This document shows positions 16,501-59,567 of a stretch of DNA of 64,000 nt, in pieces; position 1 is the stretch's first letter, and the number at the start of each line of letters is the position of its first letter. Made by a program: the position numbers and the translations under genes. Source of the DNA: an uncultured Bacilli bacterium (GTDB lineage: Bacteria; Bacillota_I; Bacilli_A; RFN20; CAG-826); NCBI GenBank assembly GCA_944363535.1, contig CALVUG010000003.1:307-64306 (forward strand), in the 5' to 3' direction. The notes under the pieces were generated by a model. It was not told where the DNA came from, did not search any database, and was given only the letters and a program-made list of their open reading frames with translations.

Positions 16501-16643
16501 TTAACTGTTCTACTTGATAAAACTTTTGTTTTGCCTGAACCCGCTGAGGCTGAGACAAGAAATTCACCATTGCTTGTTATTGCAGCGGCTTCTTGAGCAG
16601 GATTAAGCTTTTCACTTTTTATAAACTCATCAGCAGTAATCAT
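13512..16643 (-). CDS. addA: ATP-dependent helicase/nuclease subunit A
   Basis: Start set at ATG 16643 (MITADEF..., GGGGG SD, 1 nt after the addB stop). UvrD motif I SAGSGKTKVL, motif II IDEYQDT, and C-terminal RecB-type nuclease GFIDLI...IIDFKF. Confidence 0.85.
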   Translation of the reverse strand: MITADEFIKSEKLNPAQEAAAITSNGEFLVSASAGSGKTKVLSSRTVKLILEGTPVEKLLILTFTKEAAKQMGERIKNLLIKVGNFEAASKVDLAHIETFDSFCLAMVRRYHNLLNLDANVTILDKGILEIETSRLIQEIFNEFYKKQDERFLNFITQFSSKDDENIKNKVIRKLFKKFEIIPDTEKYINNYFLNFYDENEFIKSLDDYYEEIMDKLKTLKYEYDINNYELNDEIYNTFMIALSCRDYDDLIALNDFKFGRVKGDVASKDFHYRLKTVLEYIKDHNDYSESHHFVSKEKMLLTYRNSKKHIEIVLEIIKELHRRLLDFKKRNNAFDFIDIAKYLIKLLKENDSVRKEISSMFDYIMIDEYQDTSDLQEETINLIKNNNVFQVGDIKQSIYRFRNANPDLFLEKMNKFNKNEGGETHILKTNYRPTVEVINAINLFFAKVMKPPYQEYDYNNGHAMEPLQGKYGVDKGIQVVTYSASEISENIDKDEFEVTYIALDILRRIKESKNSLNFSNFTILIDRANKFNFIKKIFDKYSIPLSIEREDNVEMDDIYLVIKNILKLIFYIHDESKKMEFNHSFISILRSFIYEISDEELANLAKNKTYSSYDLYKIVDRLNLEKDNLSIRDLILSIYEQFDIYKNLLKIDNYDFNLAILDRILSLAISYDELGQSALDLLNYFIDADEYEVSMKIRVKEDIENCVKLMTIHGSKGLEFDYIYLPFNNVSPNLEDARSSILFDQKLGMFIPSYDFGDIGSPFRDQLSDKINSELAMERLRLLYVGLTRAKKQNVVLLPLPNLNNKKKIPNVLKENCSTFSNFYYYGLMDEDYSFLDYPEVINANFETLMRMNDLITNNLNDLKDKKETVKATLEIKPCAKLNLLKPLKRIRASKAENSNADEDLLNLGTRLHAYLEKIDFKNVDLSFIQDEKERNYIDRFLKLDLFKNAKDARALHEFSYYDDEEDVSGFIDLILIYDEHIDIIDFKFANIDDPNYVRQLGMYKHYLEKINENYLPIRTYLASVIKATYKEVMTDENNLDK

Positions 16644-16644
16644 C

Positions 16645-18966
16645 TTAACCCCCTTTTTTTGAAATTTTAGTGACCATTTCGTCTTTTCTAAAACAAATGT
16701 CTCTAAAATTACAATATTTGCAACTATTAAAATCATTGCCCATATCTTTTGGATTTATGTCAAATTCGAAATTTTTGATGCGTCTTATTGCATCATTCAA
16801 TAAATCTTCCGTACGTTTATTGACTGCTTTTTCTTGACCTAATTTAATATTCGGACCATTAGATGAATAAGAATAATTAGTTTTAAAGCCTTTAAAATAT
16901 AAACTACTTCTAAGATTATTGTCTTCTAAAGAAGTATCTAGTTTCTTAAAACCGTTTAAATCAAATGTTAACCCGTTAAATTTTTCTTTTTCGATACTTT
17001 CTTTAATTAATTGGTCGTTGCTCTTCATAGAAGATGGATAAAAAACACGAATGTAAGTTCCAACAATTTGTTTAGAAGCATATTCTTTTTCTCTAGAAAG
17101 TAATAAAGAATAAAAAGGTAATTGCAAAGATAAGCCATAATTTGCTAAAAAATCATTATACAAATCGTTATCGGAAGATTTGTAATCGATAATGGCATAA
17201 TATTTATCCATATCCACAAGCATATCAATTTTACCAAGTAACTTTGTATTATCGATATAGTCAATAACAAATGTCTTTTCTTTGATTAATGAATAAGGCT
17301 CTTCAATTTGAAGATAAAATTTTTTTAATAATTCTGCGTTGGTGACGATTACCTTTTTCATCTTTTCTTTAAGCGCAAGTTCGTTAATTTTCCAAGTGTA
17401 ATTTTTAAAGCAATGTTCAAATACTTGATTAAAATCTATTTCTTTATCGATATCAATTTGTTCAAAAACTTTATGTGCGAGTTCGCCTAATTTTAAATGG
17501 ATAGATTCAGAATTATCAGAAATATTAAGAACATGAGAAACAAAATATTTAAAATGACATTCAAAATAAGACTTAATGTGCGAGTAAGAAATAGGGTTTT
17601 TAAAGAAAAGATGCGAATTTTTAAAATTGATAAAAGATGGATCATATAGTTTTGGAAGATCATCACTTAAACTATTTTGATACGCTATAAACATATTATT
17701 CGAATCATTATATTTATCGTTTTTCTCCTTAATCTTTTTAAAATAAGTTAAGGAAGCATTTTTAGAAAAGGAAGCATCTAATTTAATATCTTTTAAATAA
17801 TTTCCTAACATATTAAGTTCATTAACAAATGGTGAAAGAGAAATATTCTCACTTCCTTCAACTTTATGATATGTAAATATTAATTTTAAGTCTGAATGTA
17901 ATAAATTAGTGCAACGCTCCTTTTCAAAATTAGATAATGTTAAATTAGAAGTTAGATGTAGTTTTTGAGAAGTTTCTTCATCTAAACCATGAAATGCATC
18001 ATATACTTTTGGAAAAGATGAATTTGCGAAATTTAAAATAAATAAGTATTTACCTTCAAAAGCATCGAAATCTTCGACAATCTTAATCTTAGATTTTTCT
18101 TTTAAAACTTCGACATCACTATCTAAAAATAAAGCTTTAAAAAATTCAATTTTTCTTTGATGATCAAAATTAAGATTTAAATAAGGTTCCACTAGGTTAT
18201 AAAAATTATCGAAATCATTAGGATAACTTTCTTTTAAGGCATCTAAATTAGTCTCGTTAAATTCGTCTAATTTTAAAAAAGATTTTGCAATAGGCAAGTA
18301 AATAACTTTAATTTTAGAAGGATAATTTAAACCTAGGTGATAACAATTTTCAAGACGATGAATGGAAAGTAAATAAGTATCGTTAAGCCCATAAATTCCA
18401 ATATCTAAAGGATCAATTAAATTATTATTTTCATCGCCTTCACTTACAAGCGAAGCAATTTTATTATAAACATAGTATAATTCATCATCTAGGTTGTTAA
18501 ATATTAAATAAGAAAGATTTTCAATGGGCTTTGCCGCATTAATCGAAGCAAAAACAGGATTAAATCCTAATTTTTCTTTTAAAAATAATAAGAGTTCGTC
18601 ATTTTTTGAATAACCTTCAACTCTTAAAGTTAATCCTTTTAAATCATCTAAATTATTGGATTTGATGTACAAGTTATTATCGATGAGATATCGTTTCATT
18701 TCCGCTAATTTTATAAGTTTAGGATCAAAAGTATTTTCATCGACATATATTAAGTTATTAAAATTCTCTTTTGCGTCTCCATAACTTAAATTAAACTTAT
18801 TAACTAATGCTATAAAAGCTTGTTTTTTAAATGAACCATAATAAAGAGAAATTAAATCTTCCTTAGTGTAAAGTTTCACATCAGCAAAAACATCATTTTT
18901 ACGATATTTTTTAAGAATAATTTTATGTAAAGAATAAGGTGCAAGAATATTATAAATATGGCTCAT
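16645..18966 (-). CDS. addB: Helicase/nuclease subunit B, short form (AddB/RexB-like)
   Basis: 773 aa. Nuclease motif GKIDMLV...AIIDYKS. Iron-staple cysteines: one upstream (SYFECHFKY) plus C-terminal CKYCNFRDIC. No Walker A seen. Confidence 0.75.
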   Translation of the reverse strand: MSHIYNILAPYSLHKIILKKYRKNDVFADVKLYTKEDLISLYYGSFKKQAFIALVNKFNLSYGDAKENFNNLIYVDENTFDPKLIKLAEMKRYLIDNNLYIKSNNLDDLKGLTLRVEGYSKNDELLLFLKEKLGFNPVFASINAAKPIENLSYLIFNNLDDELYYVYNKIASLVSEGDENNNLIDPLDIGIYGLNDTYLLSIHRLENCYHLGLNYPSKIKVIYLPIAKSFLKLDEFNETNLDALKESYPNDFDNFYNLVEPYLNLNFDHQRKIEFFKALFLDSDVEVLKEKSKIKIVEDFDAFEGKYLFILNFANSSFPKVYDAFHGLDEETSQKLHLTSNLTLSNFEKERCTNLLHSDLKLIFTYHKVEGSENISLSPFVNELNMLGNYLKDIKLDASFSKNASLTYFKKIKEKNDKYNDSNNMFIAYQNSLSDDLPKLYDPSFINFKNSHLFFKNPISYSHIKSYFECHFKYFVSHVLNISDNSESIHLKLGELAHKVFEQIDIDKEIDFNQVFEHCFKNYTWKINELALKEKMKKVIVTNAELLKKFYLQIEEPYSLIKEKTFVIDYIDNTKLLGKIDMLVDMDKYYAIIDYKSSDNDLYNDFLANYGLSLQLPFYSLLLSREKEYASKQIVGTYIRVFYPSSMKSNDQLIKESIEKEKFNGLTFDLNGFKKLDTSLEDNNLRSSLYFKGFKTNYSYSSNGPNIKLGQEKAVNKRTEDLLNDAIRRIKNFEFDINPKDMGNDFNSCKYCNFRDICFRKDEMVTKISKKGG

Positions 18967-18973
18967 TTAAATC

Positions 18974-20455
18974 TTATTTTCCTTCCTTAAAACTAATCGC
19001 TGCTTTAACTGCGTTTTTCCATCCCTTAATCTTTTTATTTCTTGTTAACTCATCCATTTTAGGAGTAATAATTTTTTCATATGAATGAAGTTTCAAAATC
19101 TCTTCCATACTTTCAAAATAGCCAGTTGAAAGTCCAGCAAGATAAGCTGCACCTAAAGCAGTCACCTCGACGCAACTTGGTTTCTTTAAAGTCGCACCTA
19201 ATAAATCAGATTGAAATTGTAAGATGTAATTATTTTTAGAAGCTCCACCATCAACTTTTAAATCACCTAATTCAAAATTGATTTCATCTTCCATCGTCTT
19301 TATAACTTCATAACATTGATAAGCAATACTTTCTAGAGTGGCCTTAACAATTTCAAGTTGCGAACTATCGCGCGTTAAGCCAAATATGGCTCCCCTTACG
19401 TCATCGTCCCAATAAGGTGTACCAAGTCCAACAAAAGCTGGCACAAAATATAATTCATTATCGTTTCTTGCCTGATTGGCCTTATTTTCCGTCTCATCAG
19501 GGGTTTTAATAATCTTTAGTTGATCTCTAAGCCAACTAACAGCCGCTCCACCGACGAAGACGCTACCTTCCAAAGCATAAGTGACTTCATCGCCTATTTT
19601 CCACGCTATCGTAGAAAGTAAACCATTTTTTGAATTAACAATTTCACTTCCGGTATTTAAAAGCATGAAGCAACCTGTACCATACGTATTTTTATATTCA
19701 CCTTTTTTAAAGCAAGCATGACCAAATAATGAAGCTTGTTGATCACCCGCCACACCGGTAATAGGTGTATCCACTCTAAAAAATGATGCTTTAGCGAAAT
19801 ATCCACTCGATGCTTGAACACGTGGAAGCATAATTCTAGGAATATTAAATAAATTTAATAATTCATCGTCCCATTCATTTGTGTGGATATTATAAAGTAA
19901 AGTTCTAGAAGCGTTACTGACGTCTGTAGCAAAACTTTGCCCATTACTTAATTTATAGATGAGCCAAGTATCGATCGTACCAAATAAAATTTCTCCATTT
20001 TCCGCTCTAACTTGCCCGTCTTCAATCTTATCTAACAAATAACGAATCTTTGAGGCACTAAAATAAGGATTTAATCTTAAGCCAGTCTTCTCATAAATTA
20101 ATTGTTCTTTATCTCTTCTTTCTTCACAAATTTCTAAAGATTGTCTCGATTGCCAAACGATAGCGTTACTTAAAGGCATACCAGATTTATCGAAGAGTAC
20201 AGTCGTTTCCCTTTGATTAGTTATACCAATACAATCGATATCATCAAATGTAGCGTTACTTTTGACGAGCAATTCATTGATTACATCAATGACAGAGAGC
20301 CAAATTTTTAAAGCATCAACTTCGACGTAACCAGCTTTAGGATAAATTAAAGGGATTTCTTTTTGTGCGATCGCTGCCATATGAGCGGACTTATCAAAAA
20401 GTATCGCACGCGAAGAAGTCGTTCCTTGATCGATAGATAAAATATATTTTTTCAT
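18974..20455 (-). CDS. glpK: Glycerol kinase
   Basis: 493 aa. Motifs SIDQGTTSSRAILF, GDQQASLFG and FGGASKNN-like DGGASKNN. Confidence 0.95.
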   Translation of the reverse strand: MKKYILSIDQGTTSSRAILFDKSAHMAAIAQKEIPLIYPKAGYVEVDALKIWLSVIDVINELLVKSNATFDDIDCIGITNQRETTVLFDKSGMPLSNAIVWQSRQSLEICEERRDKEQLIYEKTGLRLNPYFSASKIRYLLDKIEDGQVRAENGEILFGTIDTWLIYKLSNGQSFATDVSNASRTLLYNIHTNEWDDELLNLFNIPRIMLPRVQASSGYFAKASFFRVDTPITGVAGDQQASLFGHACFKKGEYKNTYGTGCFMLLNTGSEIVNSKNGLLSTIAWKIGDEVTYALEGSVFVGGAAVSWLRDQLKIIKTPDETENKANQARNDNELYFVPAFVGLGTPYWDDDVRGAIFGLTRDSSQLEIVKATLESIAYQCYEVIKTMEDEINFELGDLKVDGGASKNNYILQFQSDLLGATLKKPSCVEVTALGAAYLAGLSTGYFESMEEILKLHSYEKIITPKMDELTRNKKIKGWKNAVKAAISFKEGK

Positions 20456-20534: not shown

Positions 20535-22955
20535 ATGAAGAACAAACGTTTACTTTTTATTCCCTTGACGACTGCTTTAATAGTGAGTAGCTTTTCCCTA
20601 TTTTTTATCTCTAGCCCAGCTAAGACAACTTCGGTTGCGCAAGTGATTAATGCATCTAATTTAGGTGAAGAACAAATAAGAACATATTATGAAGGTATCG
20701 ATAATCTAAGCGGAGACATTTTACTTACTTCACTTAGCGATATAATTGATGGTCGCACATCTATTTCATACGAAAGTACGTTCGATTGGATGGCTATCAC
20801 TGATAGAGATTGGGTCCAATCTCCACTTAGCGAAGAAGAATTAGCGAATTATGATTTCTCTAACTTATCAAATGATAATCCTATCATGCATCTTATGTAT
20901 CGAAATGATAATTATCTTCCTAGCGCTTCAAGGTATTACGCTAACGTAAGTGAAGATGAAAAAAGTTTCGATAGAGAACACGTCTGGGCTCAAACAAGAG
21001 GCGGCTTCAAAACAAGCATTGGTATGGGCACAGATATGCATCATCTTTTCGCTAGCGATAAAATAAATAACCAAAACGGACATGGTAATAGTGATTTTGG
21101 TAATGTAGATGAGGTAAGTAGCCAAATCGGAAATACCGATTATAACAATACAGGTAAAACCGGAACACAAAACGGTTCAAGCGTCACGGTCTATGAACCG
21201 CACGATGATGTTAAAGGTGATATTGCACGTGCCTTGTTTTATATGGCTGTAAGATATGATGAGACATTATCTTTAAGAAGTGAAATTCAAAATAGCAGCG
21301 TCGTAGGCACCATTGGTAACTTAGACGTTTTATTAGAATGGAATAAAACTGATCCAGTCGACGTTTTTGAAATTCATCGCAACAACTTGATTTACAATAA
21401 CATTCAGCACAATAGAAATCCTTTCATCGACTTCCCTAGTTGGGCGGACGCTATATGGGGAAATGAGACCGCTAACGTAAGTGAAGATACGCCTTCTCTT
21501 ATCGATAACGTCATCGATTTAAGACCTTCGAGGAATGGCAGATTAGTGATCGAACACCTACCAAATAAAATAGCTTATACCCGTGGCGAAGCCTTAGATG
21601 TAACCGGCTTAGTCGTTAGTTACGAGCATGATGGAACGCGTGAAACTATCACTGATTACGTCTTAAGTATCGAAGATGAATCTATTCTATCTAACCCCGG
21701 AAATTATCGTGTCTTCGTCTCTTCTAAACTAGAAGGCATCATCTATACGTATTTTGATATTAACGTTACAAATACCCAAGAAGAGACACCTACACAAACA
21801 GTCATCTACTCAACTGGCTTTGAAGTAAGCGAAGGATTTAGCATTGGAACAAATTATCAAAGTAGCGTCACAAGCGGCCCAGAAGATCAACAATGGAATA
21901 TTGATGGGAATTTTTCTTCATCAAGTGGTAATATCGACGGCGTTTCCGCTAGACTTAGATATTATAAAAATTCAACTAAGTTAAACGAATTAAAAATGGA
22001 ATTCGACGTATCAAAAGTTTCCTCAATTAAATTTGATACGAAGATGCATACTAATCTAACTTTAGATGCTTTCTATAGCTTAGATAGCGGAAAAACTTAT
22101 CAATATTTGAAGCAAGCTGATGGAAGCGATTTTAAAAATGTGAAGACGACAAGCGTTCGAACTTACGAACTAGATGTAGCGAATGGAAGTACTAGTGAAA
22201 CAGTTCGCTTTAAATTCGCTTTAGGCGATGCTTCACAAAAACCAAGCGGTGGTAATACTGAACTAGTAATTGATAATATTAGCATCTATGGAGAAAACTA
22301 CGCTAGTCCATTTGATGATTTCCTCGTCGTTAAAGATTTACCTCGCACTTTAACTTACGAAGTAGGCGATACTTTTACGAGTGAAAACTTACTTGTTAAT
22401 CGCCTTAGTTATAGCGCTCCTACATCTAATTTCTACGATTATACTTTATCGATCGAAGATGGAGTGATTTTAAATACTCCAGGACAAATTAGAGTCGATG
22501 TTAATCCTCTTGATTCTTCTATTAAGTCCACTCATTTTTATATCACAGTCATCGGTGTACTTAGCCCAGCTCAAGCTTTTGCTAATAAACTTGCGAATTA
22601 TAAAACGTGCGTTGATTACATTGAAGCATATGAAACATTAATCGATGAATATAATGCTTTAAGTGACGCTGATAAAGAAGCACTTAAAGACATCATCATC
22701 TACGATTACGATTATCAAGAATATCTAAATAACGGCAAAAGTTATGAAGGCTTAAACCCCACTAGTCAAATTGATGCCCACACAAAATGGATGCAAATTA
22801 TTGCGATGTATGACCGCGCTAATAGCGCCACTTGGGTTTCAAGTCTATTTACTAATCCACAAACGTATCTAACTTTACTTTATATCGCTTTAGCGATAGG
22901 AGCGATAACGATCACCGTTTACTTTATAAGTAAAAAGCGTAAACAAATTCGTTAA
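20535..22955 (+). CDS. Surface-anchored multidomain nuclease (endonuclease I family)
   Basis: 806 aa with an N-terminal signal/TM segment. Endonuclease-I motifs DREHVWAQ, DMHHLF, GDIARALFYM and HNRNPFIDFP. Two Big_3-like Ig repeats (LPNKIAYTRGEALDVTGLVV..., LPRTLTYEVGDTF...) flank a beta-rich module. C-terminal TM helix plus KKRKQIR tail. Confidence 0.8.
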   Translation: MKNKRLLFIPLTTALIVSSFSLFFISSPAKTTSVAQVINASNLGEEQIRTYYEGIDNLSGDILLTSLSDIIDGRTSISYESTFDWMAITDRDWVQSPLSEEELANYDFSNLSNDNPIMHLMYRNDNYLPSASRYYANVSEDEKSFDREHVWAQTRGGFKTSIGMGTDMHHLFASDKINNQNGHGNSDFGNVDEVSSQIGNTDYNNTGKTGTQNGSSVTVYEPHDDVKGDIARALFYMAVRYDETLSLRSEIQNSSVVGTIGNLDVLLEWNKTDPVDVFEIHRNNLIYNNIQHNRNPFIDFPSWADAIWGNETANVSEDTPSLIDNVIDLRPSRNGRLVIEHLPNKIAYTRGEALDVTGLVVSYEHDGTRETITDYVLSIEDESILSNPGNYRVFVSSKLEGIIYTYFDINVTNTQEETPTQTVIYSTGFEVSEGFSIGTNYQSSVTSGPEDQQWNIDGNFSSSSGNIDGVSARLRYYKNSTKLNELKMEFDVSKVSSIKFDTKMHTNLTLDAFYSLDSGKTYQYLKQADGSDFKNVKTTSVRTYELDVANGSTSETVRFKFALGDASQKPSGGNTELVIDNISIYGENYASPFDDFLVVKDLPRTLTYEVGDTFTSENLLVNRLSYSAPTSNFYDYTLSIEDGVILNTPGQIRVDVNPLDSSIKSTHFYITVIGVLSPAQAFANKLANYKTCVDYIEAYETLIDEYNALSDADKEALKDIIIYDYDYQEYLNNGKSYEGLNPTSQIDAHTKWMQIIAMYDRANSATWVSSLFTNPQTYLTLLYIALAIGAITITVYFISKKRKQIR

Positions 22956-24280: not shown

Positions 24281-24871
24281 TTATACGACGAGATATTGTT
24301 CTTTTTTTAATTTAATTTCATGAAAAGTTAAATCTAATTTACTTACATCTTTTAAACTAAGAAATGAAATTTTAGCATATTCTTCTAGATGATGTTCTTC
24401 TTTAATTTCAACGTCCTTTTTAGCTTTTAATTTCGCTAAATTTTCATAACTTAACGTCGCTTCGTAGAGATAAGCTTTTTCTTGCTTACCAAACTTAGCC
24501 TCATCGATAAGTAACTTCACCGTATTTAAATACGTTCTTAAAAGTCTAGAAGCACCAAGTAAGGTCCCACCAAAATAACGTACGACGATGATGAGATAAC
24601 AATTTAGATGTAACTTCTCACACATCTCTAAAACTGGCTTAGAAAAAGTATTATGCGGCTCTCCGTCCCCACTTGCGTAACTTACATCAAATATCTTATA
24701 AGCGTAACAATAATGCCGTGCTTTTGGATATTTAATTTTTATTTCTTCTAATATCTTAGTGACATCATCTTTCGTTTCAATCGGCCACAAAACACCAATG
24801 AAACGCGATTTGAGCACTTCTAAAGTCACTTCAAAGGAGTCTTTGGGGACGATGTAATTTAAATAGCTCAT
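24281..24871 (-). CDS. yigZ: IMPACT/YigZ family protein (UPF0029)
   Basis: 196 aa. Motifs SRFIG, ARHYCYAYKI and SGDGEPHNT fit the YigZ N-terminal domain. The start overlaps the stop of the 2103-aa gene (ATGA-type, 4 nt). Confidence 0.8.
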   Translation of the reverse strand: MSYLNYIVPKDSFEVTLEVLKSRFIGVLWPIETKDDVTKILEEIKIKYPKARHYCYAYKIFDVSYASGDGEPHNTFSKPVLEMCEKLHLNCYLIIVVRYFGGTLLGASRLLRTYLNTVKLLIDEAKFGKQEKAYLYEATLSYENLAKLKAKKDVEIKEEHHLEEYAKISFLSLKDVSKLDLTFHEIKLKKEQYLVV

Positions 24872-27800
24872 AAAGTGCGCAAAGTAGAGGCTAAATTAAC
24901 GTAGAAGTTCTCTACACCAAATGGATTAATATAATCAGTGAAAACATCTAAATCAGGATAAGTATTATTTAACGGAGTGATAAAATAAGCCAGATAAAAA
25001 TAATCTGAATAAACGCTATGACCCATATCTTCTAATGCAGCGATAAATGCTTCTCGATTTGTGATCATGTCATTTACATCAATATAATCAAACATATCAA
25101 ATAGCGAACGAATCTCTTGACACGTTTCAGGTGTCACAAGTAAAAGATAATCATCGAACGTTAAATCTTTATAATCTTCGTAAGAACTAGATTCGTAATT
25201 GGTTACTTTTCTAATATCTGTATCGATGATGTCTTCAAAATAAGAGAAGAAATGTCGTATACTAAGATCTAAAGAAACGTAAGCTCTATTGCCGTTACTG
25301 TCGAATGTCGCATTAAAGATGTTTTCTAAATTTAAACTATCAAATCCTAAGATATTTCCAGATAATTGAATAGCAGCTAATTCACCTAATTCCGAATAAG
25401 TATTTAAGAAGAATTTATTGATACCTTCGCCTTCGCTTCTTCCGCTGAAATTAGGCATCAAGGAATAAGAATAGAACTTACCAGCAAGAGAAGAGACATC
25501 GCTATCAAATAAAATAGAAGTTAATCCACTTTCATCGAACATACGAGCGAAGCCAAGAGACGCTGCATCGTAAATTAAATTCGTATCTTCATAAATATTA
25601 TCTAGGAGATAAGAATTGTAGAACGTCTCTAAAATAGTATCAAAATGACTAGATGTTTCAATTAATTCATCTACGGTAGAAATGCGTAAATCAGAGTATT
25701 TACTCGTATCTTCTACGTCCACTAAGACGTCGAATAAATTCTTTAAATTTTCTAATTCGTAATCGCGATATAAAGCTTGTGAGATACGGAAGTTAGCCAT
25801 ATTTTCTTGACTTAGAGGATTAACAAATAAATCTAATAAAGTATGGTTATTATTAGAGTTAACAGTAATTTCTTCTAATTGATTTTCAATCAATTGTGGG
25901 ATGACATTATTTAAAGTATCCACTTCATTTAAACTTCTTAAAATAGCGAACACTTTATCGTTAGGATTTTCTCCAAGTTCAGGTAATAAATTATCTAAGT
26001 TATTTAAACTATCAAAACTGATATTCGTAGAACCTAAATTTTCACCTACGACATCTAAGAAGGCTTTTAAATCATCTAATTCATATAACCAATTACCTTC
26101 ATTTAAACCAGTTTGACTAGTTTCAAAATTTCTTAAGCGATACGCGACATATTCGCTGGCGTTACTTGCGACATCGCTATCGTATCTTGCGTCATAATTA
26201 AGATGATCTAAACCGAGATTAGAATAGACATTAATCATCGTTTGGATGAAGACTGTATCGCTTCCTGAAGAGACACTTCCCGCTTGATGGAAGATAGAAC
26301 TTTCATAGATGGCTTTTAAGCCATTGATGATGTGATTATTATTCTTTATAGAATAAGTCGATAACTTCGTCAAATCTAAATCGGTGATAACCTTTAGTTC
26401 ATCTAACATCGTCTTCATGAATTCGAATTCACTTTCAGGATATTTGACATTGTAATTACTCGCTTCTTCGTAATGATAGAAGACGTTCGCGCTACTAAGG
26501 TCGATACTAAAACCATTTTCTACGTTATTGAATGGATTAACTGAGACGAATTGATGAATTAAATTAGGTGCACCATCATAGATGACATTAGAGTTATTTA
26601 ACGCTACGACTAAATCGTAAACTAACGCTGTATCGACACTTAAATAATCGATACTGTCGATCGACATCGATTCACCATCCGCAATATTGAGCGATTGTAA
26701 GATGCCTAAAACATCGAATATTTGAACGAGTTCTTTTTCTTGATAACTATAATCTACGACATCGCTCGCACCAAACTTAAAATGTTCATTTATAAGATAA
26801 TCAGCCTTGGCGATACCATCTACGTAAACACTAGAGTTATTCATATCTTTTGGTGAAGTTTCATCATAGATGATAATTTGCATATCTTCGAGTTCAAGAA
26901 TACTTGTCGTGAGAGCTTGGAAGAATGAATCTTCTTCACCACTCGTAGGATTTGGACCACTACGATGGAAGATGTGCGAAGCATTAAGATTTAACATCGT
27001 TTCTTCAAATAAATCTAAATCTAAACTGCTAAGGCTCGTATATTGACCTTCATTAATGTAATAAAGATTTTCGATGATAGCAACTAAGTTTTCAATTTCC
27101 CCTTCTAGATAGGGATTATCGCCATTATAATAAACATTCACACTATCAAAGGATACATCGTTTAAGAACGTTAAGCCGGTCGTTACAAGAGTAGCGTTAT
27201 TCATCGCATTTTCAATTTCAGCAGGCAAGATTCTAAAAAACAATTTGGAATCATTTAATGAATTTAAGAAATTAGTGAGAGGTAAAGAATCGATATTACC
27301 ATTTTGATCCAAAGTTGCCCAAAGTCTGTTTAAAGTATCGATAGAAATTTCTCCATTTTCATCGGCGATTGGTGCCGCATTAGAAATGACGTTCATCGTC
27401 AATCTTATCTCGCCTTGTTCCCCTAACCATCCATCGTGAATAACATTCGTGTCCGCATGTTTATTTCCAATACTTATGATATGTTGTTCAATAGTTTGAT
27501 TTGGACCCGCCATCTCGTCAGAGTAACCAATCTTCGTGATAAAATAAGAAATGATCGATTCAAAAGCCGTAAGATTTTCTTCTAACCTTACTTCGCTATC
27601 TTTAAATGTATTGAAGACTTCCGATTCATAAATTTCATTTAATAATTGTTCAAATGTTTCTTTATTTTCATCGATGTCAAAGATATTAAAATCTGGAACG
27701 CTTCCATCTAAGGAAATGCCCACTTCTTTAAAATCAGTTAAGACGTCGACGATTAAATCTAATTCTTGTTTACGACCTTGTTTATCTAAACTTAACAAAG

Positions 27801-30800
27801 CTTCACTATTCGCATTACTTAAATCGAAATCATCGACGGAAACGTGGTCGATAAGTTCATCAATCGCGTTATAAATTGGCACTCTTAAAATATCGACTTC
27901 ATTAAATGAATGAACAGCGTTTCGAAGTAAAGTTTCATCCATTTCATCGCTAAATAAATTGTCAAAAACATTGCCGCTTGGATTAGGTAAAGAATCGATA
28001 GCGAGGTTGATGTCCACTAACATCTTATAGATGCCATAATTTAAATCGTAACCCGTCTCTTGTTCACGACTTGTTAAATCTTTCCAAGCTTCTTTATAAT
28101 TCGCATCCGCGAAATCTTTTTCTATTTCGCTGTAACTAAGCCCATCTGGATCAGCAAAATAATCTCTATTCGTGCCGAGCGAATCCATCGATTGATGTAA
28201 TTTATCATAGATAAAATTAGAAAAAAGGAATTCTTGACTATTTTTATCTACGAACACACTTGAATCCACTAAGTTATCAAGTAATTCTAATACTAGGTCA
28301 GGTTCAACTTTAAAAATATCAATTTCGTTAATATTTTGTTCGAATTTACCAATTGTCGTACAAATTTTACCAAAGACTTTACCTTCTTCCGTCCAGTTGA
28401 CGATGTTAGAAAAAGAAATACCGCTACTAGGATCGATGATACCAGAATTAACAAGATAATAATCGAACGTATCAGCGATGCTAGATTTCGTCACTTCCGA
28501 TAAATCTATCGCAGCAAATATATCGGAGATACGATAAACTGTTTCAAGTTGACCGATCGTTTCATTGCTTAATGTTTCACCTTGTAAGGCATCATAGATG
28601 CCAGTTCCGCCGAAGATGCTAAAGAAGTTTACGATGTAGCCAATTTCACCATCGTAAACAATCTTACCATTACGGTCTAAGATGTAATCACCATTTAAGT
28701 GTTTACTATTTTCCCACTTCGTCACATCGAATCTAGAAGAATCGAAGTCGAACTGAGGAACACTATTTTCGTAGACTAATTCTAAAAGATTGTAGAAATT
28801 ATCCGTCCTCATATTACCGAAAGCATCTTTTGGATTAAGAATATTAGAGACGTAGAATGTTTCAAGTAAAGAGACGAGTTCTTCTTCATTTTCTGGAATG
28901 GAACGTAAGGCCATAGAAATGCTTACATCATCTTTTTCTATGAAGTTATTGGAGACGTAAACGACACCTTCGATACTAGAGAAGATAAGGGCTAATTCTT
29001 CACCGATATGTTCCACTTCCCAATCAAAATTTGCTGGGCTTAGACCAATTTGGCCTAAGGCATTAGTGACATCCGGCGAATCCATGAAGCCTTTGATGAT
29101 ATCAGGTACGATCGAACTTAAAATTTTAGAATGATCAATGGTCGGTAAAATATTCTCCATCCCATCGATAAAATTGCTATCGACGTCGACGATCATCCCT
29201 TCTTCATCGATGGTGATGACATCGCTATTAGTGGGATCCATGATGTAATCGACGATGGAATCATATTCGTTCATGAGTGATAAAGTATTTAATAACGCTC
29301 CAAATTCTTTTTTGAAGTTATAGAACGCTCTTTCATCGTTCATATCGAGGATGATAGATTCTAATTCAGTTGTATCGATACTAATAGTATCGTTTGAAGA
29401 TAAAGAGGTGACGAGTAAATCCACGAGGTCATCGATAGCGTACCTAATTAAATCTGAATCAAATAGGGCATAATCAGCGTTTTCTAACCTATTACCGTCT
29501 TTATCCGTCATTATGGTACGTCCCGCTTCATCGACCCCAATCGGATTACCGTCTTTATCTAACACTCCGACGAAGATGTAACTTAACGCTTTAGCGTTAA
29601 CGAACACTAAGTCGATAATTTGTTGGCCGGTCTCATCGATAGCGACGTCGTTTCTTACGTCGTCCACTAATTCATTAACGCTCACATCTTCTTGATTTTC
29701 ACTCGGTAAGAAGATATCGAGTAAATTTGGTTCAACTTGATTTAATTCGTAAAGCGAATCGTAGATGATAGCTAAGTTTCTTCCCCAATCGATATTTTTA
29801 TAATCTTCTAATTCGCTCGGTAAGTAAGTAGCGATATCTTCTCCTACCGTTCCACTCGACGTGACGCTATATAAGACGATAGGGATGAGACGAGATAATA
29901 ATTCACTATTCGAAATGGATTCAAAAATGCGCATGAAGTAAGGATAATTTTCTTCCGTGAGCATCGATTGATATAAAGTGTCGATATCAATTTCGCTCAC
30001 ATCTTTCCAACCAATCGCATTCCCTTCTCCATCATAATTGACGAAGTTACGTATTAAACCAGAACTAAAGACGTCGGAGACGATAATTTGTAGAGTATCA
30101 ATTTCTTCTTGCACATCGAAATTGAAATCTTCGATTAAAGAAGCGTCGATGTAATTTTCCATCGCATCTTGATTTAAACCAATCGCTAAAGCGATAGGAA
30201 GAGCGTAGACGATCAAATCTGAACCAGATAAAGTTTCTAATAATTGGATGAAGAAATCCGCATTATTAATCAAAGCTGGATCAAAAGAAAAACCATCTTC
30301 CGTCACTAAGCCATTGGAGATGATCGAACCTCCACCATGCCCAATTTGAGCGATGATATCATAAATGCTATCACCCGTCCCAGTATCAGTGAAAAAATCC
30401 ATGAGCCAAGTATCAAAAGTCCAAACGCCATCTTTTGAAGTCCAATTGAAAAAGACGTTAGAAAAAATAGAATTATTATAGGTAGAAACAAAGGAATTTA
30501 AATATTGCGCGACTTCTGAATCGCTTTCGCCCATGTTCGTTTGATCGTAAGCCCTTGAGAAAGTACCGATGATGCTAACGGTTGGAAGTGCACACATCAA
30601 AGTGATGACGACGTATCTAGCACTATGAATTAAACCACCCAGCCATTTCTTTCTTTTCGTCTTAATGACTCTTCTTGGGAAGAAACGTTTTAACACTAAG
30701 TTCCACAAGACGATAGTGAGGAAACCACCGACAGAAATGATGAGGATGGAAGAAATGATAATTGAAAGTAAGGCTAATAACGAAGTGGCGATACTTAAAG

Positions 30801-31179
30801 CATATTCGCTCGCGGCTTGCCCACTTGCGACGCCATAAAGTTCGAAGAATGTTTCGATATAATTCGCTAAAGTGCCAAATACCGAAGTAATTTCTACATT
30901 GATCGGTGCCCCAGTTGAAGGATTGGTAACAGTGAGGTCTTGGATACCAAACGCTCCAAGAATCGGCGCAGCATCAAAGCCCCCAATCCAACGTCCAAAG
31001 GCGGGCGCACAAAATAAAGCGATGATAGCTAAGCCACCCATGAAACAAAATCTAAATAAAGAATTTAATAGCCCTCTTTTCCAACCGATGAGAAAAGAAA
31101 TGAGAAGACCTACAAAAAATAAAACAAAAAGTGTAATTAAGGTAATATTGACGATAAGTCCAAGTGTTTCAGGTGTCAT
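24868..31179 (-). CDS. Giant (2103 aa) polytopic-anchored, acidic repeat protein; N-terminus tentatively CvpA-like
   Basis: One uninterrupted 6.3-kb ORF. About 5 TM helices in the first ~210 aa with a positive loop KRFFPRRVIKTKRKKW. The remaining ~1900 aa is D/E/N/S-rich and carries a recurring motif (see findings). Confidence 0.8.
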   Translation of the reverse strand: MTPETLGLIVNITLITLFVLFFVGLLISFLIGWKRGLLNSLFRFCFMGGLAIIALFCAPAFGRWIGGFDAAPILGAFGIQDLTVTNPSTGAPINVEITSVFGTLANYIETFFELYGVASGQAASEYALSIATSLLALLSIIISSILIISVGGFLTIVLWNLVLKRFFPRRVIKTKRKKWLGGLIHSARYVVITLMCALPTVSIIGTFSRAYDQTNMGESDSEVAQYLNSFVSTYNNSIFSNVFFNWTSKDGVWTFDTWLMDFFTDTGTGDSIYDIIAQIGHGGGSIISNGLVTEDGFSFDPALINNADFFIQLLETLSGSDLIVYALPIALAIGLNQDAMENYIDASLIEDFNFDVQEEIDTLQIIVSDVFSSGLIRNFVNYDGEGNAIGWKDVSEIDIDTLYQSMLTEENYPYFMRIFESISNSELLSRLIPIVLYSVTSSGTVGEDIATYLPSELEDYKNIDWGRNLAIIYDSLYELNQVEPNLLDIFLPSENQEDVSVNELVDDVRNDVAIDETGQQIIDLVFVNAKALSYIFVGVLDKDGNPIGVDEAGRTIMTDKDGNRLENADYALFDSDLIRYAIDDLVDLLVTSLSSNDTISIDTTELESIILDMNDERAFYNFKKEFGALLNTLSLMNEYDSIVDYIMDPTNSDVITIDEEGMIVDVDSNFIDGMENILPTIDHSKILSSIVPDIIKGFMDSPDVTNALGQIGLSPANFDWEVEHIGEELALIFSSIEGVVYVSNNFIEKDDVSISMALRSIPENEEELVSLLETFYVSNILNPKDAFGNMRTDNFYNLLELVYENSVPQFDFDSSRFDVTKWENSKHLNGDYILDRNGKIVYDGEIGYIVNFFSIFGGTGIYDALQGETLSNETIGQLETVYRISDIFAAIDLSEVTKSSIADTFDYYLVNSGIIDPSSGISFSNIVNWTEEGKVFGKICTTIGKFEQNINEIDIFKVEPDLVLELLDNLVDSSVFVDKNSQEFLFSNFIYDKLHQSMDSLGTNRDYFADPDGLSYSEIEKDFADANYKEAWKDLTSREQETGYDLNYGIYKMLVDINLAIDSLPNPSGNVFDNLFSDEMDETLLRNAVHSFNEVDILRVPIYNAIDELIDHVSVDDFDLSNANSEALLSLDKQGRKQELDLIVDVLTDFKEVGISLDGSVPDFNIFDIDENKETFEQLLNEIYESEVFNTFKDSEVRLEENLTAFESIISYFITKIGYSDEMAGPNQTIEQHIISIGNKHADTNVIHDGWLGEQGEIRLTMNVISNAAPIADENGEISIDTLNRLWATLDQNGNIDSLPLTNFLNSLNDSKLFFRILPAEIENAMNNATLVTTGLTFLNDVSFDSVNVYYNGDNPYLEGEIENLVAIIENLYYINEGQYTSLSSLDLDLFEETMLNLNASHIFHRSGPNPTSGEEDSFFQALTTSILELEDMQIIIYDETSPKDMNNSSVYVDGIAKADYLINEHFKFGASDVVDYSYQEKELVQIFDVLGILQSLNIADGESMSIDSIDYLSVDTALVYDLVVALNNSNVIYDGAPNLIHQFVSVNPFNNVENGFSIDLSSANVFYHYEEASNYNVKYPESEFEFMKTMLDELKVITDLDLTKLSTYSIKNNNHIINGLKAIYESSIFHQAGSVSSGSDTVFIQTMINVYSNLGLDHLNYDARYDSDVASNASEYVAYRLRNFETSQTGLNEGNWLYELDDLKAFLDVVGENLGSTNISFDSLNNLDNLLPELGENPNDKVFAILRSLNEVDTLNNVIPQLIENQLEEITVNSNNNHTLLDLFVNPLSQENMANFRISQALYRDYELENLKNLFDVLVDVEDTSKYSDLRISTVDELIETSSHFDTILETFYNSYLLDNIYEDTNLIYDAASLGFARMFDESGLTSILFDSDVSSLAGKFYSYSLMPNFSGRSEGEGINKFFLNTYSELGELAAIQLSGNILGFDSLNLENIFNATFDSNGNRAYVSLDLSIRHFFSYFEDIIDTDIRKVTNYESSSYEDYKDLTFDDYLLLVTPETCQEIRSLFDMFDYIDVNDMITNREAFIAALEDMGHSVYSDYFYLAYFITPLNNTYPDLDVFTDYINPFGVENFYVNLASTLRTL

Positions 31180-31185
31180 GTCAAT

Positions 31186-31194
31186 AATCTAGCA
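31186..31194 (-). promoter_or_regulatory. Extended -10-like TGCTAGATT 6 nt upstream of ATG 31179
   Basis: Reverse strand reads TGCTAGATT-attgac-ATG with no SD. Confidence 0.35.
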
Positions 31195-31263
31195 TATTTA
31201 AATTAGTAATTTAAGAAAAAAATGTATAAATTATAAAAAGAATAATAACAATTGCTTCTTTTG

Positions 31264-36121: not shown

Positions 36122-37906
36122 TTATTCGACGGTGACAGATTTGGCTAAATTACGAGGCTTATCGACGTTTAAGCCTTTTTTGATAGCTGTATAGTAAGTT
36201 AAATATTGCGCGACCATCACTTTCGACATCGGAGAAAGATATAAAGGTGAATCGCAAACGATGATATCATCATCTTCTAAAGATAAAGATTTAGAGGAGA
36301 CGACGAAAACTCTTCCCCCTCTAGCCTTAATTTCTTGGAAGCCATTTCTCATCTGATGGGCAGTCTTTTCTTCCGAGATGAAAGCGATGGAAGGAAATTC
36401 ATTAGAAATTAAAGCGATTGGACCATGCTTTAGTTCGCCCGCTTGCACCGCACTCGCGTTAATGTAGGTCACTTCTTTCATCTTCAAAGCCCCTTCTAAG
36501 GCGGTCGAATAATCGATGCCGCGCCCTAAGAAGAACAAATTATCGTACTTAGCGATTTCTTCGGCAACAGGGATAAACTTTTCTTTATGAGCGATGATCT
36601 TTTCTAGACATTTAACTTGCTCTCTTAATTCATTAAAATGATGACCTTTAATGAAAGCTGCATCTAAAAGCATGAAAAGCAATGCAAGTTCAGATTGATA
36701 AACTTTCGTCGAAGCGACGCTTACTTCCACGCCGCTATAAAGATTTAAATAATATTCAGCTTTTCTAGCTAATGAAGAATATCGATTGTTCGTAATCGTC
36801 AAAAGATGATAAGCATTATCTTGAATGAAAGGGACACATTTTAATAAATCCGCTGTCTCTCCGCTTTGCGAGATGATGATGAACAAAGGATTTTTTGTCA
36901 TCACTACCGGGTGATAGGCAAATTCACTAGCGATGTATGCACTAGCGAGTTTTCCTTTTGACCTTAATAAGTCGACAGCAATTAAAGAAGCATGATAACT
37001 TGTCCCGCACGCTAAGAAGATAATTTCGCTCGCCCTTTCGATAATTTTTAAAAGTTTAGGATCGAACGTATATTCATCATGAAAAACATAGTTTTTAATT
37101 AATCTTTCGATGCAACTCGGTGTCTCTTCAATTTCTTTTAACATGAAATGTGGATAGCCATTAAGAGAAACATCAAGATTTTCGCTACTTCTTTCCACGA
37201 GTTTAACTTTTTCTTCTTGTCCTTGGAAATAGACGTGAATTTCATCTTTAGTTATATAGCCAAATCTTCCATCTTTTAAATCGACGAATTCACGAGAAAT
37301 TTCCGCCATCGGAATTTGATCGCTCGCTAAGTAATTCGCTCCTTGGCCTTTACCGATAAGTAAAGGTGATAAGTTCTTAGCAAAATAAAGGCGATGGGGT
37401 TCAGCAAGATGAACGATGGCTAAAGAATAAGAACCATTTAATTTAGAAGTCGCCATCTCGATAGCTTCGAGCATATCTTTCGCACTAGTGGATAGATAAT
37501 AAGCAATTAAATTAGCGACAATTTCGCTATCGGTGTTCCCATAAAATGAAATTTTATTCGCAGCTAAAAATTCTCTTATTTGGACGAAGTTTTCAATGAC
37601 TCCGTTGTGCACTAAAATAACTTTACGGTCGAAGGAATAAACCGGGTGACAATTTGAAATGGTAACGCCTCCATGCGTCGCCCAACGCGTATGAGCGATA
37701 CCGACGCTAGGAGTGTGTTCGAAAGTCGTAGGTACTTGTTTATCTAAATTATCGACGACGCCGACGCTTCTTTCGAGTAAAGAAAAAGAACCATCCGTCA
37801 CAAATAAACCACAAGAATCGTACCCACGATATTCAAGTTTACGTAAACCATTTAGTAAATAATCACGAAAATCAAGCGCTCCACAAGCGCCAACAATGCC
37901 ACACAT
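36122..37906 (-). CDS. glmS: Glutamine--fructose-6-phosphate aminotransferase
   Basis: 594 aa. N-terminal MCGIVG nucleophile, two SIS domains, C-terminal ...KSVTVE. Confidence 0.95.
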   Translation of the reverse strand: MCGIVGACGALDFRDYLLNGLRKLEYRGYDSCGLFVTDGSFSLLERSVGVVDNLDKQVPTTFEHTPSVGIAHTRWATHGGVTISNCHPVYSFDRKVILVHNGVIENFVQIREFLAANKISFYGNTDSEIVANLIAYYLSTSAKDMLEAIEMATSKLNGSYSLAIVHLAEPHRLYFAKNLSPLLIGKGQGANYLASDQIPMAEISREFVDLKDGRFGYITKDEIHVYFQGQEEKVKLVERSSENLDVSLNGYPHFMLKEIEETPSCIERLIKNYVFHDEYTFDPKLLKIIERASEIIFLACGTSYHASLIAVDLLRSKGKLASAYIASEFAYHPVVMTKNPLFIIISQSGETADLLKCVPFIQDNAYHLLTITNNRYSSLARKAEYYLNLYSGVEVSVASTKVYQSELALLFMLLDAAFIKGHHFNELREQVKCLEKIIAHKEKFIPVAEEIAKYDNLFFLGRGIDYSTALEGALKMKEVTYINASAVQAGELKHGPIALISNEFPSIAFISEEKTAHQMRNGFQEIKARGGRVFVVSSKSLSLEDDDIIVCDSPLYLSPMSKVMVAQYLTYYTAIKKGLNVDKPRNLAKSVTVE

Positions 37907-37914
37907 ATTCGATA

Positions 37915-39273
37915 CTAATCCTCGCTTTCAATAACTTGATAAATACTTTGACAAACCTTTTTACAAAGCTCATTAGTCTTGGCTTCGCACATGATGCGGA
38001 TGAGAGGTTCCGTCCCACTTTTGCGGACAAAAATCCTTCCTTCTTCCGCTAATAAGTCTTCATTTTCTTTTAAGATAGCTTTAACTTTATCATTTTCTAA
38101 AACATGAGAGTCTTTATCTTTCAAACGATAATTGATCATGAGCTGTGGATAGATAGTAATCTCTTTAAGAACTTCATCAAAACTATGACCTAACCTAACA
38201 AATTCATTTAATAAAGCGACCATCGTAAGGAATCCATCACCCGTTTCCAGTTTATCGTATTGGATGATGTGACCCGATTGTTCGCCTCCTAAGATGTAAC
38301 CATGTTCTTTCAAACTTCTTTGGACGTATTTATCGCCGACATCCGTTTGAACGACATCAATCTTTTCATTTTCTAAAGCTTTTAATAAACCGATGTTAGA
38401 CATCTTAGTGACGACGATGGCGTTACCTATCAATTTATTTTGTTCTTTTAAAGCTTTTGCTAAGATGAATAAAGTTTTATCGCCATCGATCACTTCGCCA
38501 TCGTGATCGACGCACATCAAACGGTCCGCATCGCCATCGAAGGCAAAGCCAAGGTCATATTGACCTTCTTTCATCTTAGAAATTAATCCTTCTAGATGCG
38601 TGCTACCAGCATGAAGATTGATATTTTTGCCATCTGGCTTATCGTTAATAAAAGTGACATCGGCCCCTAAGGAAGCAAAAAACTTCGGAGCGATCGCACT
38701 TGCGGAACCATTGGCTAAATCAAGTAATAAACGTAGACCTTTTAAATCGCTCGTCAAGTAAGATTTAAGAAATTCAATATATTCATCTTTTACTTCGTTA
38801 GATGGGACAAGCTTTCCTGCTCTAGCAAACTTTTTGATATCTAAATCATCTTTTTCTTTTTCGATGTAGCCTTCAATTTCTACTTCTAAATCTTCGCTAA
38901 TCTTCGAACCCGTATGAGAAAATACTTTTATCCCATTATCGGTGTAAGGATTATGGGAAGCAGAAATCATGATACCATAGGTATAATGTCTTTTATTGAT
39001 TAGATAAGAAACACTAGGAGTGGTCGTCACCCCTAAGTCGTAGACATTCGAGCCAGATTTAATGATACCTTCCACTAAGGCATCTAAAAGTAAGGAACCA
39101 CTAAATCTTGTATCTCTTCCGATGACGATATGATTTCTTTTACCCGCAACATTAAAACCGATGTAACGTCCGATGCGATAAGCCATCTCACGTGTGAGAC
39201 CTTCGCCGTAGACTCCTCTAATTCCATCCGTACCAAATAGGTGCGGTTTAACTTCATTACATTTCTTCATCAT
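37915..39273 (-). CDS. glmM: Phosphoglucosamine mutase
   Basis: FGTDGIRG and phosphoserine loop SASHNP. Start chosen at ATG 39273 (SD GAGGAAG), giving ~452 aa. The track's longer ORF to 39384 runs through the cdaA 3' end. Confidence 0.9.
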   Translation of the reverse strand: MMKKCNEVKPHLFGTDGIRGVYGEGLTREMAYRIGRYIGFNVAGKRNHIVIGRDTRFSGSLLLDALVEGIIKSGSNVYDLGVTTTPSVSYLINKRHYTYGIMISASHNPYTDNGIKVFSHTGSKISEDLEVEIEGYIEKEKDDLDIKKFARAGKLVPSNEVKDEYIEFLKSYLTSDLKGLRLLLDLANGSASAIAPKFFASLGADVTFINDKPDGKNINLHAGSTHLEGLISKMKEGQYDLGFAFDGDADRLMCVDHDGEVIDGDKTLFILAKALKEQNKLIGNAIVVTKMSNIGLLKALENEKIDVVQTDVGDKYVQRSLKEHGYILGGEQSGHIIQYDKLETGDGFLTMVALLNEFVRLGHSFDEVLKEITIYPQLMINYRLKDKDSHVLENDKVKAILKENEDLLAEEGRIFVRKSGTEPLIRIMCEAKTNELCKKVCQSIYQVIESED

Positions 39274-59356: not shown

Positions 59357-59390
59357 TAGCATTCCTCCAAATGTGTGCCTAATCGTCACT

Positions 59391-59406
59391 GCTTAAACGT
59401 TTAAGC
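59391..59406. promoter_or_regulatory. Perfect 16-bp palindrome GCTTAAACGTTTAAGC, candidate LacI-family operator
   Basis: Central AAACGTTT core typical of LacI/GalR operators. Lies 15 nt downstream of the putative -10 and 35 nt upstream of ATG 59356. Confidence 0.55.
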
Positions 59407-59421
59407 ACTTTCTTTACTTAC

Positions 59422-59450: not shown

Positions 59451-59567
59451 ATAAATTTTTTTCATAAATTTTTTCGCTTAATTTTTTTAAGCAACACCCT
59501 CTTTTTCCTTAATATATTAAAGAAATAATAAAAGCGAAAGAAAAAGCTAAAAATATGAAAAAATTAA

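Follow-up and report, generated by a model that had tools for sequence, protein, structure and literature searches.

A gene for a giant membrane-anchored protein is found at 24868..31179 on the (-) strand of the window discussed here, the window being a 64,000-nucleotide (nt) stretch of contig CALVUG010000003.1 (assembly GCA_944363535.1) from an uncultured Bacilli bacterium. The open reading frame (ORF), which an earlier note on this DNA had singled out, is present in the ORF list and its translation, and is complete, with 2103 codons followed by a TGA stop. The gene is real and conserved, and its product of 2103 amino acids (aa) is a very acidic, all-helical repeat protein that is held in the membrane by four helices. 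It belongs to a new, unannotated family of ~150 giant proteins of uncultured Bacilli, within the broad and known kind of giant repeat surface proteins. How might such a protein work? The whole is best explained, with a probability of about one half, by a four-pass membrane anchor that carries an exported acidic helical solenoid, the latter acting as a structural spacer or docking scaffold. The anatomy assigned to the protein here is very probably right; the role as scaffold or spacer is put forward tentatively, and that of an enzyme or a variable adhesin appears less likely.

The repeat unit and the protein family

The repeat came to attention through a short motif that recurs in the translated sequence. 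All 12 motif peptides quoted in the earlier note are found in the protein, their high-end coordinates within 0-11 nt of those given there. The spacings from LVDSSVF downward had been put at 377/270/378/273/384/291/378 nt and become 366/273/375/273/384/291/378 nt on recomputation, with the last four intervals unchanged. Steps of ~91-97 and 122-128 aa alternate and add up to units of 213-225 aa. A loose regular expression for the motif matches 13 times in the ectodomain, against 2.9 +/- 1.7 times in 2000 shuffles, but this enrichment is weak by itself because the motif was defined after the fact, and it is not relied upon here.

The repeat is best seen in profile comparisons. Plain BLASTP of the protein against itself gives nothing off-diagonal, and profiles are needed because the units have diverged too far for such a comparison. 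A profile of 8 homologues, aligned to itself with hhalign, gave off-diagonal scores of 220 (expectation value, E, 4e-24), 196, 118 and 99. The path scoring 220 spans aa 320-1907 at an offset of 195-266 aa and is colinear over 1200 columns; further offsets of about 405-445 aa correspond to two units. Controls of identical composition scored at most 27 when columns were shuffled and 38 when the sequence was reversed, and the repeat is thus a genuine one. A hidden Markov model (HMM) of the unit, used without iteration, finds four full units at aa 972-1172, 1184-1388, 1399-1614 and 1625-1837, and still detects the last of these at 7e-9 when that unit is left out of training.

Could the repeat nevertheless be an artefact, produced by a composition rich in N, S, L, I and D together with a loose motif, with no true internal duplication behind it? 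The empty BLASTP self-comparison and the post hoc definition of the motif would fit such a view, as would the weakness of the N-terminal units when compared one by one with the C-terminal group (E about 0.005-0.1). It is hardly credible, however, when controls of the same composition fall so far below the observed 220 and 196, when the colinear path holds its offset over its entire length, and when the unit HMM picks up the untrained unit as well as 2-6 units in distant relatives. For aa 970-1852 the compositional explanation was tested and rejected.

Four units are clear, and all lie on the (-) strand, as do the other segments of the protein described below. The unit at aa 970-1182 (27634..28272), with the motifs LVDSSVF and FNEVDILRVPIY, is marginal in hhalign (E 7e-5 to 5e-4 versus the next two units), and the match of the unit HMM at aa 972-1172 is to a unit that was in the training alignment. 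The next three match one another at 94-98% probability, with E of 1e-7 to 1e-12. They are aa 1183-1397 (26989..27633; motifs IYESEVF and LNDSKLFFRILP), which matches the units that follow at 94-97% probability (E 1.6e-10 and 2.2e-7), aa 1398-1623 (26311..26988; LNASHIF and LNNSNVIYDGAPN; 95-98% probability) and aa 1624-1852 (25624..26310; IYESSIF and LNEVDTLNNVIP; 94-95% probability). Preceding them is a degenerate region of ~3 diverged units, aa 317-969 (28273..30231), which is situated on the colinear off-diagonal path and has type A motifs near aa 422, 681 and 891 and type B motifs near aa 317, 572 and 775. Within it, aa 317-574 and aa 575-774 align with E of 2e-5 to 1e-4, and the non-iterated unit HMM gives a partial match at aa 660-728 only. 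The earlier count of at least 3.5 units is thus enlarged to four clear units (aa 970-1852) and at least three degenerate ones, reaching back to about aa 317. The C-terminal tail, aa 1853-2103 (24871..25623), is at most a weak, unconfirmed relative of the repeat (best hhalign E against the units 0.0034), and the predicted local distance difference test score (pLDDT) of the AlphaFold modelling is <50 where the tail begins.

A duplication of half-units, with a true period of ~109 aa, was rejected, as the two halves of the unit show no significant likeness when compared (7% probability). The first description, of two motif types that alternate within a unit of ~218 aa, is therefore correct, with the period now at ~215 aa and two distinct motifs in each unit.

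How widespread is this construct? A word-indexed search found only 11 homologues; full-length homologues occur at 84-96% identity, then at 50%, 27% and 25%. An exhaustive hmmsearch with the unit profile over 1.84 billion representatives found 154 relatives at E<=1e-3 and 125 at E<=1e-10, almost all of them 1500-3000 aa long and with 2-12 matched stretches each. Altogether 31 family members were read, with up to 27 in any one alignment, the window protein included. Members align over their full length at 16-31% identity to the window protein, and two close orthologues at 57% and 89%. The N-terminal layout of transmembrane (TM) helices is common to family members, and G36, P199, Y234, S237, D256, W929 and E932 are family-invariant residues. 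A member is recognized by a four-TM anchor, a YxxS...D juxtamembrane signature and at least two units of the LNxS..hP type; the window protein has the anchor, the signature and four such units. Relatives carry 0-6 full units each, with a modest correlation to length (r = 0.45), and the copy number has therefore changed during evolution. The 50%-identity orthologue (P0009), for example, has five full units and is 428 aa longer.

The only name found among the relatives is 'hypothetical protein', which in one case, MBQ7243512.1 of the P0030 cluster, comes with an organism label ('MAG: hypothetical protein [Bacilli bacterium]'). No description of such a protein was found in the literature, and tblastn against plasmids gave no match to the giant protein. 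A profile of the TM domain, searched against a database of 5.8 billion proteins, returned one truncated orthologue only, the word prefilter probably being swamped by hydrophobic sequence. Some 150 giant 'hypothetical' ORFs can now be grouped into one family that has a defined domain plan and repeat unit. A distant subfamily member, P0103 (locus L009, 3767-10738; JGI metagenome sample 3300002220), shows 16% identity and has 12 very regular repeats of ~175 aa that carry the same N-x-S-x-x-L-R-x-x-L-P motif. Its neighbourhood is different and non-syntenic.

Membrane anchor and probably exported domain

The N-terminal membrane anchor, aa 1-208 (30556..31179), has four TM helices by hydropathy and AlphaFold. 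The AlphaFold model of aa 1-1000 places them at aa 3-35, 37-66, 121-166 and 178-214. About five TM helices had been expected, but hydropathy of 19 members gives four, and in the model the third (TM3) is one helix of 46 residues. All 19 members follow one layout: TM1, a short turn of lysine or arginine (K/R), TM2, an acidic loop of 40-60 aa, a hydrophobic stretch of ~42-46 aa (extremes 30-58), a basic loop, TM4 and then acidic sequence. G32, G36, F163 and P199 are invariant or nearly so in the family anchors. The acidic outer loop of the window protein, aa 61-125 (55-65 aa), is modelled as a small beta-hairpin and a helix.

Which way does the protein face? The main topology determinant is the basic, putatively cytoplasmic loop KRFFPRRVIKTKRKKW between TM3 and TM4, which the earlier note had pointed out and which is confirmed at aa 164-179 (30643..30690). 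In 19/19 members this loop has 4-10 K/R and 0-3 aspartate or glutamate residues (D/E; none in most), with acidic outer segments on either side that hold 0-2 K/R. In every one of the 19, the N-terminus, the aa 61-125 loop and the segment after TM4 are acidic as well. With both basic loops on the inner side, all that follows aa 209 comes to lie outside, as do the N-terminus and the aa 61-125 loop; were the protein reversed, about 11 K/R would be exposed outside and 2-3 would remain within. By the positive-inside rule, the one guide used for this placement, the acidic domain of 1895 aa is probably located outside the cell. This agrees with the outward-facing domain envisaged before, and no data contradict a surface location.

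Alternatively, the large domain might be cytoplasmic and form a membrane-tethered intracellular scaffold or cytoskeleton-like structure, with a role comparable to that of the helical scaffolds of Mollicutes. The great majority of ARM/HEAT-like solenoids are intracellular, as the lists of Foldseek matches show, and the giant protein is without a cleavable signal peptide. In addition, a Kyte-Doolittle scan of the members picks out, in most of them, a hydrophobic helix (LPIALAIGLN at aa 317-337) that would flip the topology if it spanned the membrane. As a fifth TM helix, however, this segment was rejected: because it has D or E in several homologues, lacks flanking K/R, comes out in the AlphaFold model as two short helices (12 and 15 residues) and is homologous to motif helices of later units that are not TM, it does not appear to cross the membrane. 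A cytoplasmic domain would also break the positive-inside rule badly, by the charge counts given above, and is unlikely.

Constraint is unevenly distributed along the protein. The ratio of nonsynonymous to synonymous substitution rates (dN/dS) is 0.128 and 0.115 overall, in comparisons with orthologues of 87% and 84% identity (L001 and L002), and the giant gene is under purifying selection. The most constrained part is the juxtamembrane region, aa 209-316 (30232..30555; YNNSIFxNVFFNWT...DG.T.D), where dN/dS is 0.025-0.043 and aa identity to L002 and L001 is 94-99%; its residues Y234, S237 and D256 are invariant in 21-27 diverged members. Values are 0.11 in the TM domain, about 0.07 in the degenerate units (aa 317-970), 0.12-0.16 in the clear units (aa 971-1852) and 0.26-0.42 in the tail (aa 1853-2103), which is the least constrained part. 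The membrane-proximal half is therefore a conserved core, and the distal end is freer.

Does the anchor derive from a known module? A tentative likeness to CvpA had been suggested. The giant protein resembles CvpA/Colicin_V proteins in having four TM helices with a short basic turn after TM1 (G32-x-x-(K/R)-G36, conserved) and a basic loop before the last helix; it differs in the structured outer loop of 55-65 aa, which E. coli CvpA lacks. It also resembles MarP, where a CvpA-like anchor carries a periplasmic protease, in joining a small polytopic anchor to a large extracytoplasmic C-terminal domain. One could thus picture the TM domain as the conserved part, a CvpA-type module of membrane homeostasis or transport, with the giant domain as an accessory regulator or sensor, as in MarP. 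The four helices and the G-x-x-R-G turn, reminiscent of LIRGF in CvpA, speak for this, and the sole local profile match to CvpA falls exactly at that turn after TM1. The match is not significant, however. With hhalign, E. coli CvpA aligned over 23 columns at 0.8% probability, and a 12-sequence enterobacterial CvpA alignment over 43 columns at 2.4% probability (E 0.019); the latter is of low diversity (79-99% identity) and makes a shallow profile because the homologue search from E. coli CvpA listed only Enterobacterales. The Pfam model Colicin_V (PF02674) matches neither the window protein at E<=1 nor any of 21 diverged members at E<=0.1, and constraint does not peak in the TM domain (dN/dS 0.11, against 0.03 in aa 209-316). 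A CvpA-type module is therefore distinctly unlikely, and the suggested likeness is not borne out.

The composition of the protein is acidic and rich in N, S, L and I, as first described (L 11%, I 9.1%, S 9.1%, D 9.0%, N 8.3%). The ectodomain of 1895 aa has 334 D+E, 92 K+R and 2 Cys, with an isoelectric point (pI) of 4.05. Two AlphaFold models, one of two units (aa 1398-1852; pLDDT 77.9; predicted template modelling score, pTM, 0.80; all-alpha) and one of aa 1-1000 (pLDDT 80.2, from a 27-sequence alignment), have 57-66% helix and 1-5% strand, and as predictions they are confident given such shallow alignments. Foldseek comparison of both models with the PDB gives nothing at E<=0.001; the best match has E 0.034, probability is <=0.35 and TM-scores are 0.1-0.2. 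The top matches for both models are all alpha-solenoids, nearly every entry being of the ARM/HEAT type (importin-beta, CAND1, SA2, exportins, SARM1 ARM, She4, Uso1), and long solenoids superpose poorly even if related. The models thus suggest a protein of the alpha-solenoid class that has no close solved relative. The pTM of 0.80 across two units points to a rigid junction rather than beads on a string. Estimates of rod length in what follows assume ~1 nm per helical hairpin of 40 aa, a figure taken from general knowledge of solenoids.

Sequence searches are in line with a family of its own. The window protein has no match in Pfam, NCBIfam, PHROGs or PADLOC, Pfam gives single chance-level matches only for 21 members, and a PDB sequence search with whole-family and unit profiles finds nothing below E 0.18. 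These searches yield no clear match of the whole protein to a characterized family and no enzymatic motif, the latter as anticipated from the sequence. The bridge-like lipid-transfer class (AsmA/TamB/VPS13), which consists of beta-groove proteins, was considered and rejected in view of the low strand content of the models.

Within the degenerate region, at aa 538-566 (window 29482-29568), two DKDGN motifs stand 18 residues apart, LDKDGNPIGVDEAGRTIMTDKDGNRL. The segment is modelled as short beta-bridges and might constitute a divalent-cation site, although not one of the canonical EF-hand pattern. G538 is invariant or nearly so in wider family alignments, and for D541, N545, P546 and G553 invariance is limited to the alignment of 8 closer homologues.

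Proposed role and known systems

In the proposed scheme TM4, preceded by the basic loop with its 8-9 Lys/Arg, would be a signal-anchor, and the ~1900 residues after it would be exported. The exported part is predicted to fold into a continuous, very acidic and almost purely alpha-helical solenoid, which would have arisen by tandem duplication of the ~215-aa unit, with four units still clear and at least three older ones diverged. Each unit would carry two helix-capping motifs, (L/I)x(E/N/A)SxhF and LNxSxhhxxhP(N), and the aa 209-316 module would probably be packed onto the anchor's structured outer loop. The outcome would be an elongated rod or superhelix that rises from the cell surface, fairly rigid and tens of nm in length. 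There it might be a surface spacer or a docking scaffold for other surface molecules, perhaps with divalent cations bound to it or stabilizing it. The purifying selection on the gene (dN/dS about 0.12) and its fixed place in a syntenic locus are more in keeping with a conserved structural role than with an adhesin that evolves fast.

Several points weigh against this scheme. Charge bias is the sole basis of the predicted orientation, and the Foldseek matches are not significant, such that 'solenoid' is to be taken as a class-level reading. Alpha-solenoids are typical of cytoplasmic scaffolds and rare outside bacterial cells. The synteny, in turn, may only be the gene order of one clade.

Would an adhesin fit the same features? 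An exposed repeat rod could attach to other cells, to plant particles or to host mucus, with a reach tuned by the number of repeats. The protein is giant, repetitive and, by its predicted topology, surface-exposed; copy number varies from 0 to 6 full units, the samples look gut- or host-associated by contig names, and evolution is faster in the distal units and tail (dN/dS 0.12-0.42) than in the part next to the membrane (0.03-0.07). An adhesive function is rather unlikely all the same, as known adhesive domains (Ig-like, lectin, LRR, vWA) and beta-rich repeats are absent and purifying selection is strong overall. Furthermore, no second copy is found in the 64-kb window and the same locus is used in five diverged relatives; this is unlike the typical variable, multi-copy adhesin genes.

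By analogy, the giant protein may work most like an ARM/HEAT scaffold placed outside a cell. With importin-beta, CAND1, cohesin SA2 and the ARM domain of SARM1 it shares an all-helical, long structure of repeated helical hairpins with conserved helix-capping positions. It differs in its unit of ~215 aa, compared with about 40-45 aa in ARM/HEAT proteins, and in being membrane-anchored, probably extracellular and bacterial. ARM, HEAT or related Pfam repeat models do not match the window protein or the 21 members.

Among surface proteins, Gli349 and Gli521 of Mycoplasma mobile, a Bacilli-derived lineage, are of several thousand residues, with an N-terminal TM anchor, internal repeats (about 100 aa in Gli349) and elongated surface structures. 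Compared by description only, they are like the giant protein in size, TM anchor and internal repeats. The unit length differs from that of Gli349, there is no evidence of motility machinery at the giant protein locus, and PDB and Pfam searches give no Gli349-related match. YueB, EsaA and Pip (YhgE/Pip) have long, mainly alpha-helical ectodomains that project tens of nm in Firmicutes, as surface fibres and phage receptors, with TM helices at both ends and a coiled, non-repetitive stalk. The giant protein, on the other hand, is repetitive and without a C-terminal TM segment, and the YhgE/Pip/EsaA models in Pfam and NCBIfam do not match it. In cell-biological terms the giant protein is comparable to Gli349 or to the helical YueB/EsaA fibres. 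It is not a detectable member of the ARM/HEAT, Gli349, YueB/EsaA or CvpA families by sequence comparison, with Gli349 compared by description only.

RTX, Bap and SiiE adhesins are similar to it in giant size, tandem repeats, acidity, likely cation binding and surface location. They have beta-rich Ig-like repeats, however, and are exported by type I secretion or anchored to the wall through LPXTG, whereas the giant protein has the helix-dominated models described above, is TM-anchored and lacks LPXTG. Its C-terminus, ...NLASTLRTL, has no sorting motif, and no Pfam adhesin domains are present. It differs from Firmicutes S-layer proteins in being anchored by four TM helices, and SLH, CWB2 or other wall-binding Pfam domains were found neither in the window protein nor in the 21 members.

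To our knowledge, giant bacterial surface repeat proteins are nearly all beta-rich adhesins or S-layers. The giant protein departs from these in being conserved, syntenic, probably extracellular, all-helical and solenoid-like, with a small polytopic anchor, and in occurring only in uncultured Bacilli. If the outward topology and the rod shape hold, it would represent a surface architecture of a new type, in a group that is poorly known and, by sample names, seemingly gut- or host-associated, and the giant family would be a marker of the clade as well. A bolder and unlikely prospect is that these proteins are the main envelope organizer of reduced, possibly wall-less Bacilli, where a conserved core gene would supply a rigid forest of cation-bridged alpha-solenoid rods of 40-50 nm; these would delimit an extracellular compartment, as a protein 'pseudo-wall', and dock lipoprotein and TM-anchored exoenzymes. 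Should that be true, it would be an extracellular use of an ARM/HEAT-like fold, which has not been described in bacteria.

Gene start, locus and other features of the window

The 3' end of the giant gene overlaps the start of the downstream yigZ gene (24281..24871; UPF0029/IMPACT_N by Pfam), the two sharing ATGA at 24868..24871 on the (-) strand as the earlier note had read it. The 4-nt overlap is also called in L003 and L004, and L005 has a 3-nt gap instead. At the 5' end, the 72-bp divergent intergenic region (31180-31251) has no Shine-Dalgarno sequence before the ATG. An extended -10-like element, TGcTAGATT (31186..31194, (-)), ends 6 nt upstream of the ATG and is a candidate leaderless promoter. 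It is found at an identical distance from the ATG in L001, L002 and L005, the last being the 50%-identity orthologue, and L003 has GATAAT 8 nt upstream of the orthologue start. A simple consensus promoter scan did not have TGcTAGATT among its listed elements. A leaderless mRNA for this 6.3-kb gene, in a conserved arrangement, is plausible from these sequence features, in keeping with the leaderless-type start suggested at the outset. A 106-aa ORF with a GTG start, 30872-31192 (+), is antisense to the 5' end of the gene and is most likely spurious, arising from the TM-coding region.

The neighbourhood, in which thioredoxin, TraX and Rce1-like genes are divergent from the giant gene and YigZ and PepP follow it, is kept in relatives of 50%, 25%, 22% and 21% identity. 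One syntenic relative has a ParA-like gene in place of YigZ, and the most distant member examined does not share this neighbourhood. The synteny says little about function, because the ATP synthase, PRK and FGGY kinase genes of the region are also syntenic, as are the AddAB-like genes; the conserved neighbourhood looks like gene order in one clade rather than a functional operon. YigZ beside a prolidase-type peptidase is a pairing that E. coli has as well. The giant protein diverges faster than PepP and FGGY (25% vs 45-54% and 50% vs 74-79% identity) and at about the rate of YigZ and the Rce1-like protein.

Are there signs that the organism is wall-less? An 806-aa Endonuclease I homologue encoded at 20535-22955 (+) carries a signal peptide at the N-terminus and, in its C-terminal part, a TM helix with KKRKQIR behind it, without LPXTG; it is a membrane-tethered surface nuclease, of a kind common in wall-less relatives of the Bacilli. 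Several neighbouring surface proteins are lipoproteins. The anchor of the nuclease and these lipoproteins could be weak hints in favour of a wall-less cell. Peptidoglycan, sortase and wall-binding domains were not seen in the 64-kb window or the flanks viewed.

Other parts of the window have features of their own. The region 13512-20455 has a GC content of 0.27-0.30, compared with about 0.36 elsewhere, and holds an AddA/AddB-like pair (a UvrD-type helicase of 1074 aa and a PD-(D/E)XK nuclease of 773 aa) and part of a glycerol-kinase-like gene. As the same genes are syntenic in relatives, the low GC may be a local composition effect and not the mark of a foreign island. At 57887-63390 (-) there are three secreted or lipoprotein-like ORFs of 500 aa (with a Listeria-Bacteroides repeat), 953 aa and 299 aa; the latter two have no Pfam match, and the cluster is kept together on other contigs (L012 and L013). 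At 36122-40060 (-), cdaA (DAC domain), glmM and glmS lie side by side and lack an intervening cdaR-like gene; as listed, the ORFs of cdaA and glmM overlap, and the order is identical in L005. Finally, an AAA_14/DUF4143 ATPase gene at 46616-47902 (-) occupies a patch of lower GC (0.31-0.33), with a P-type ATPase on one side and an amylase/ABC sugar-uptake cluster on the other; it could be an insertion, mobile or defence-associated.

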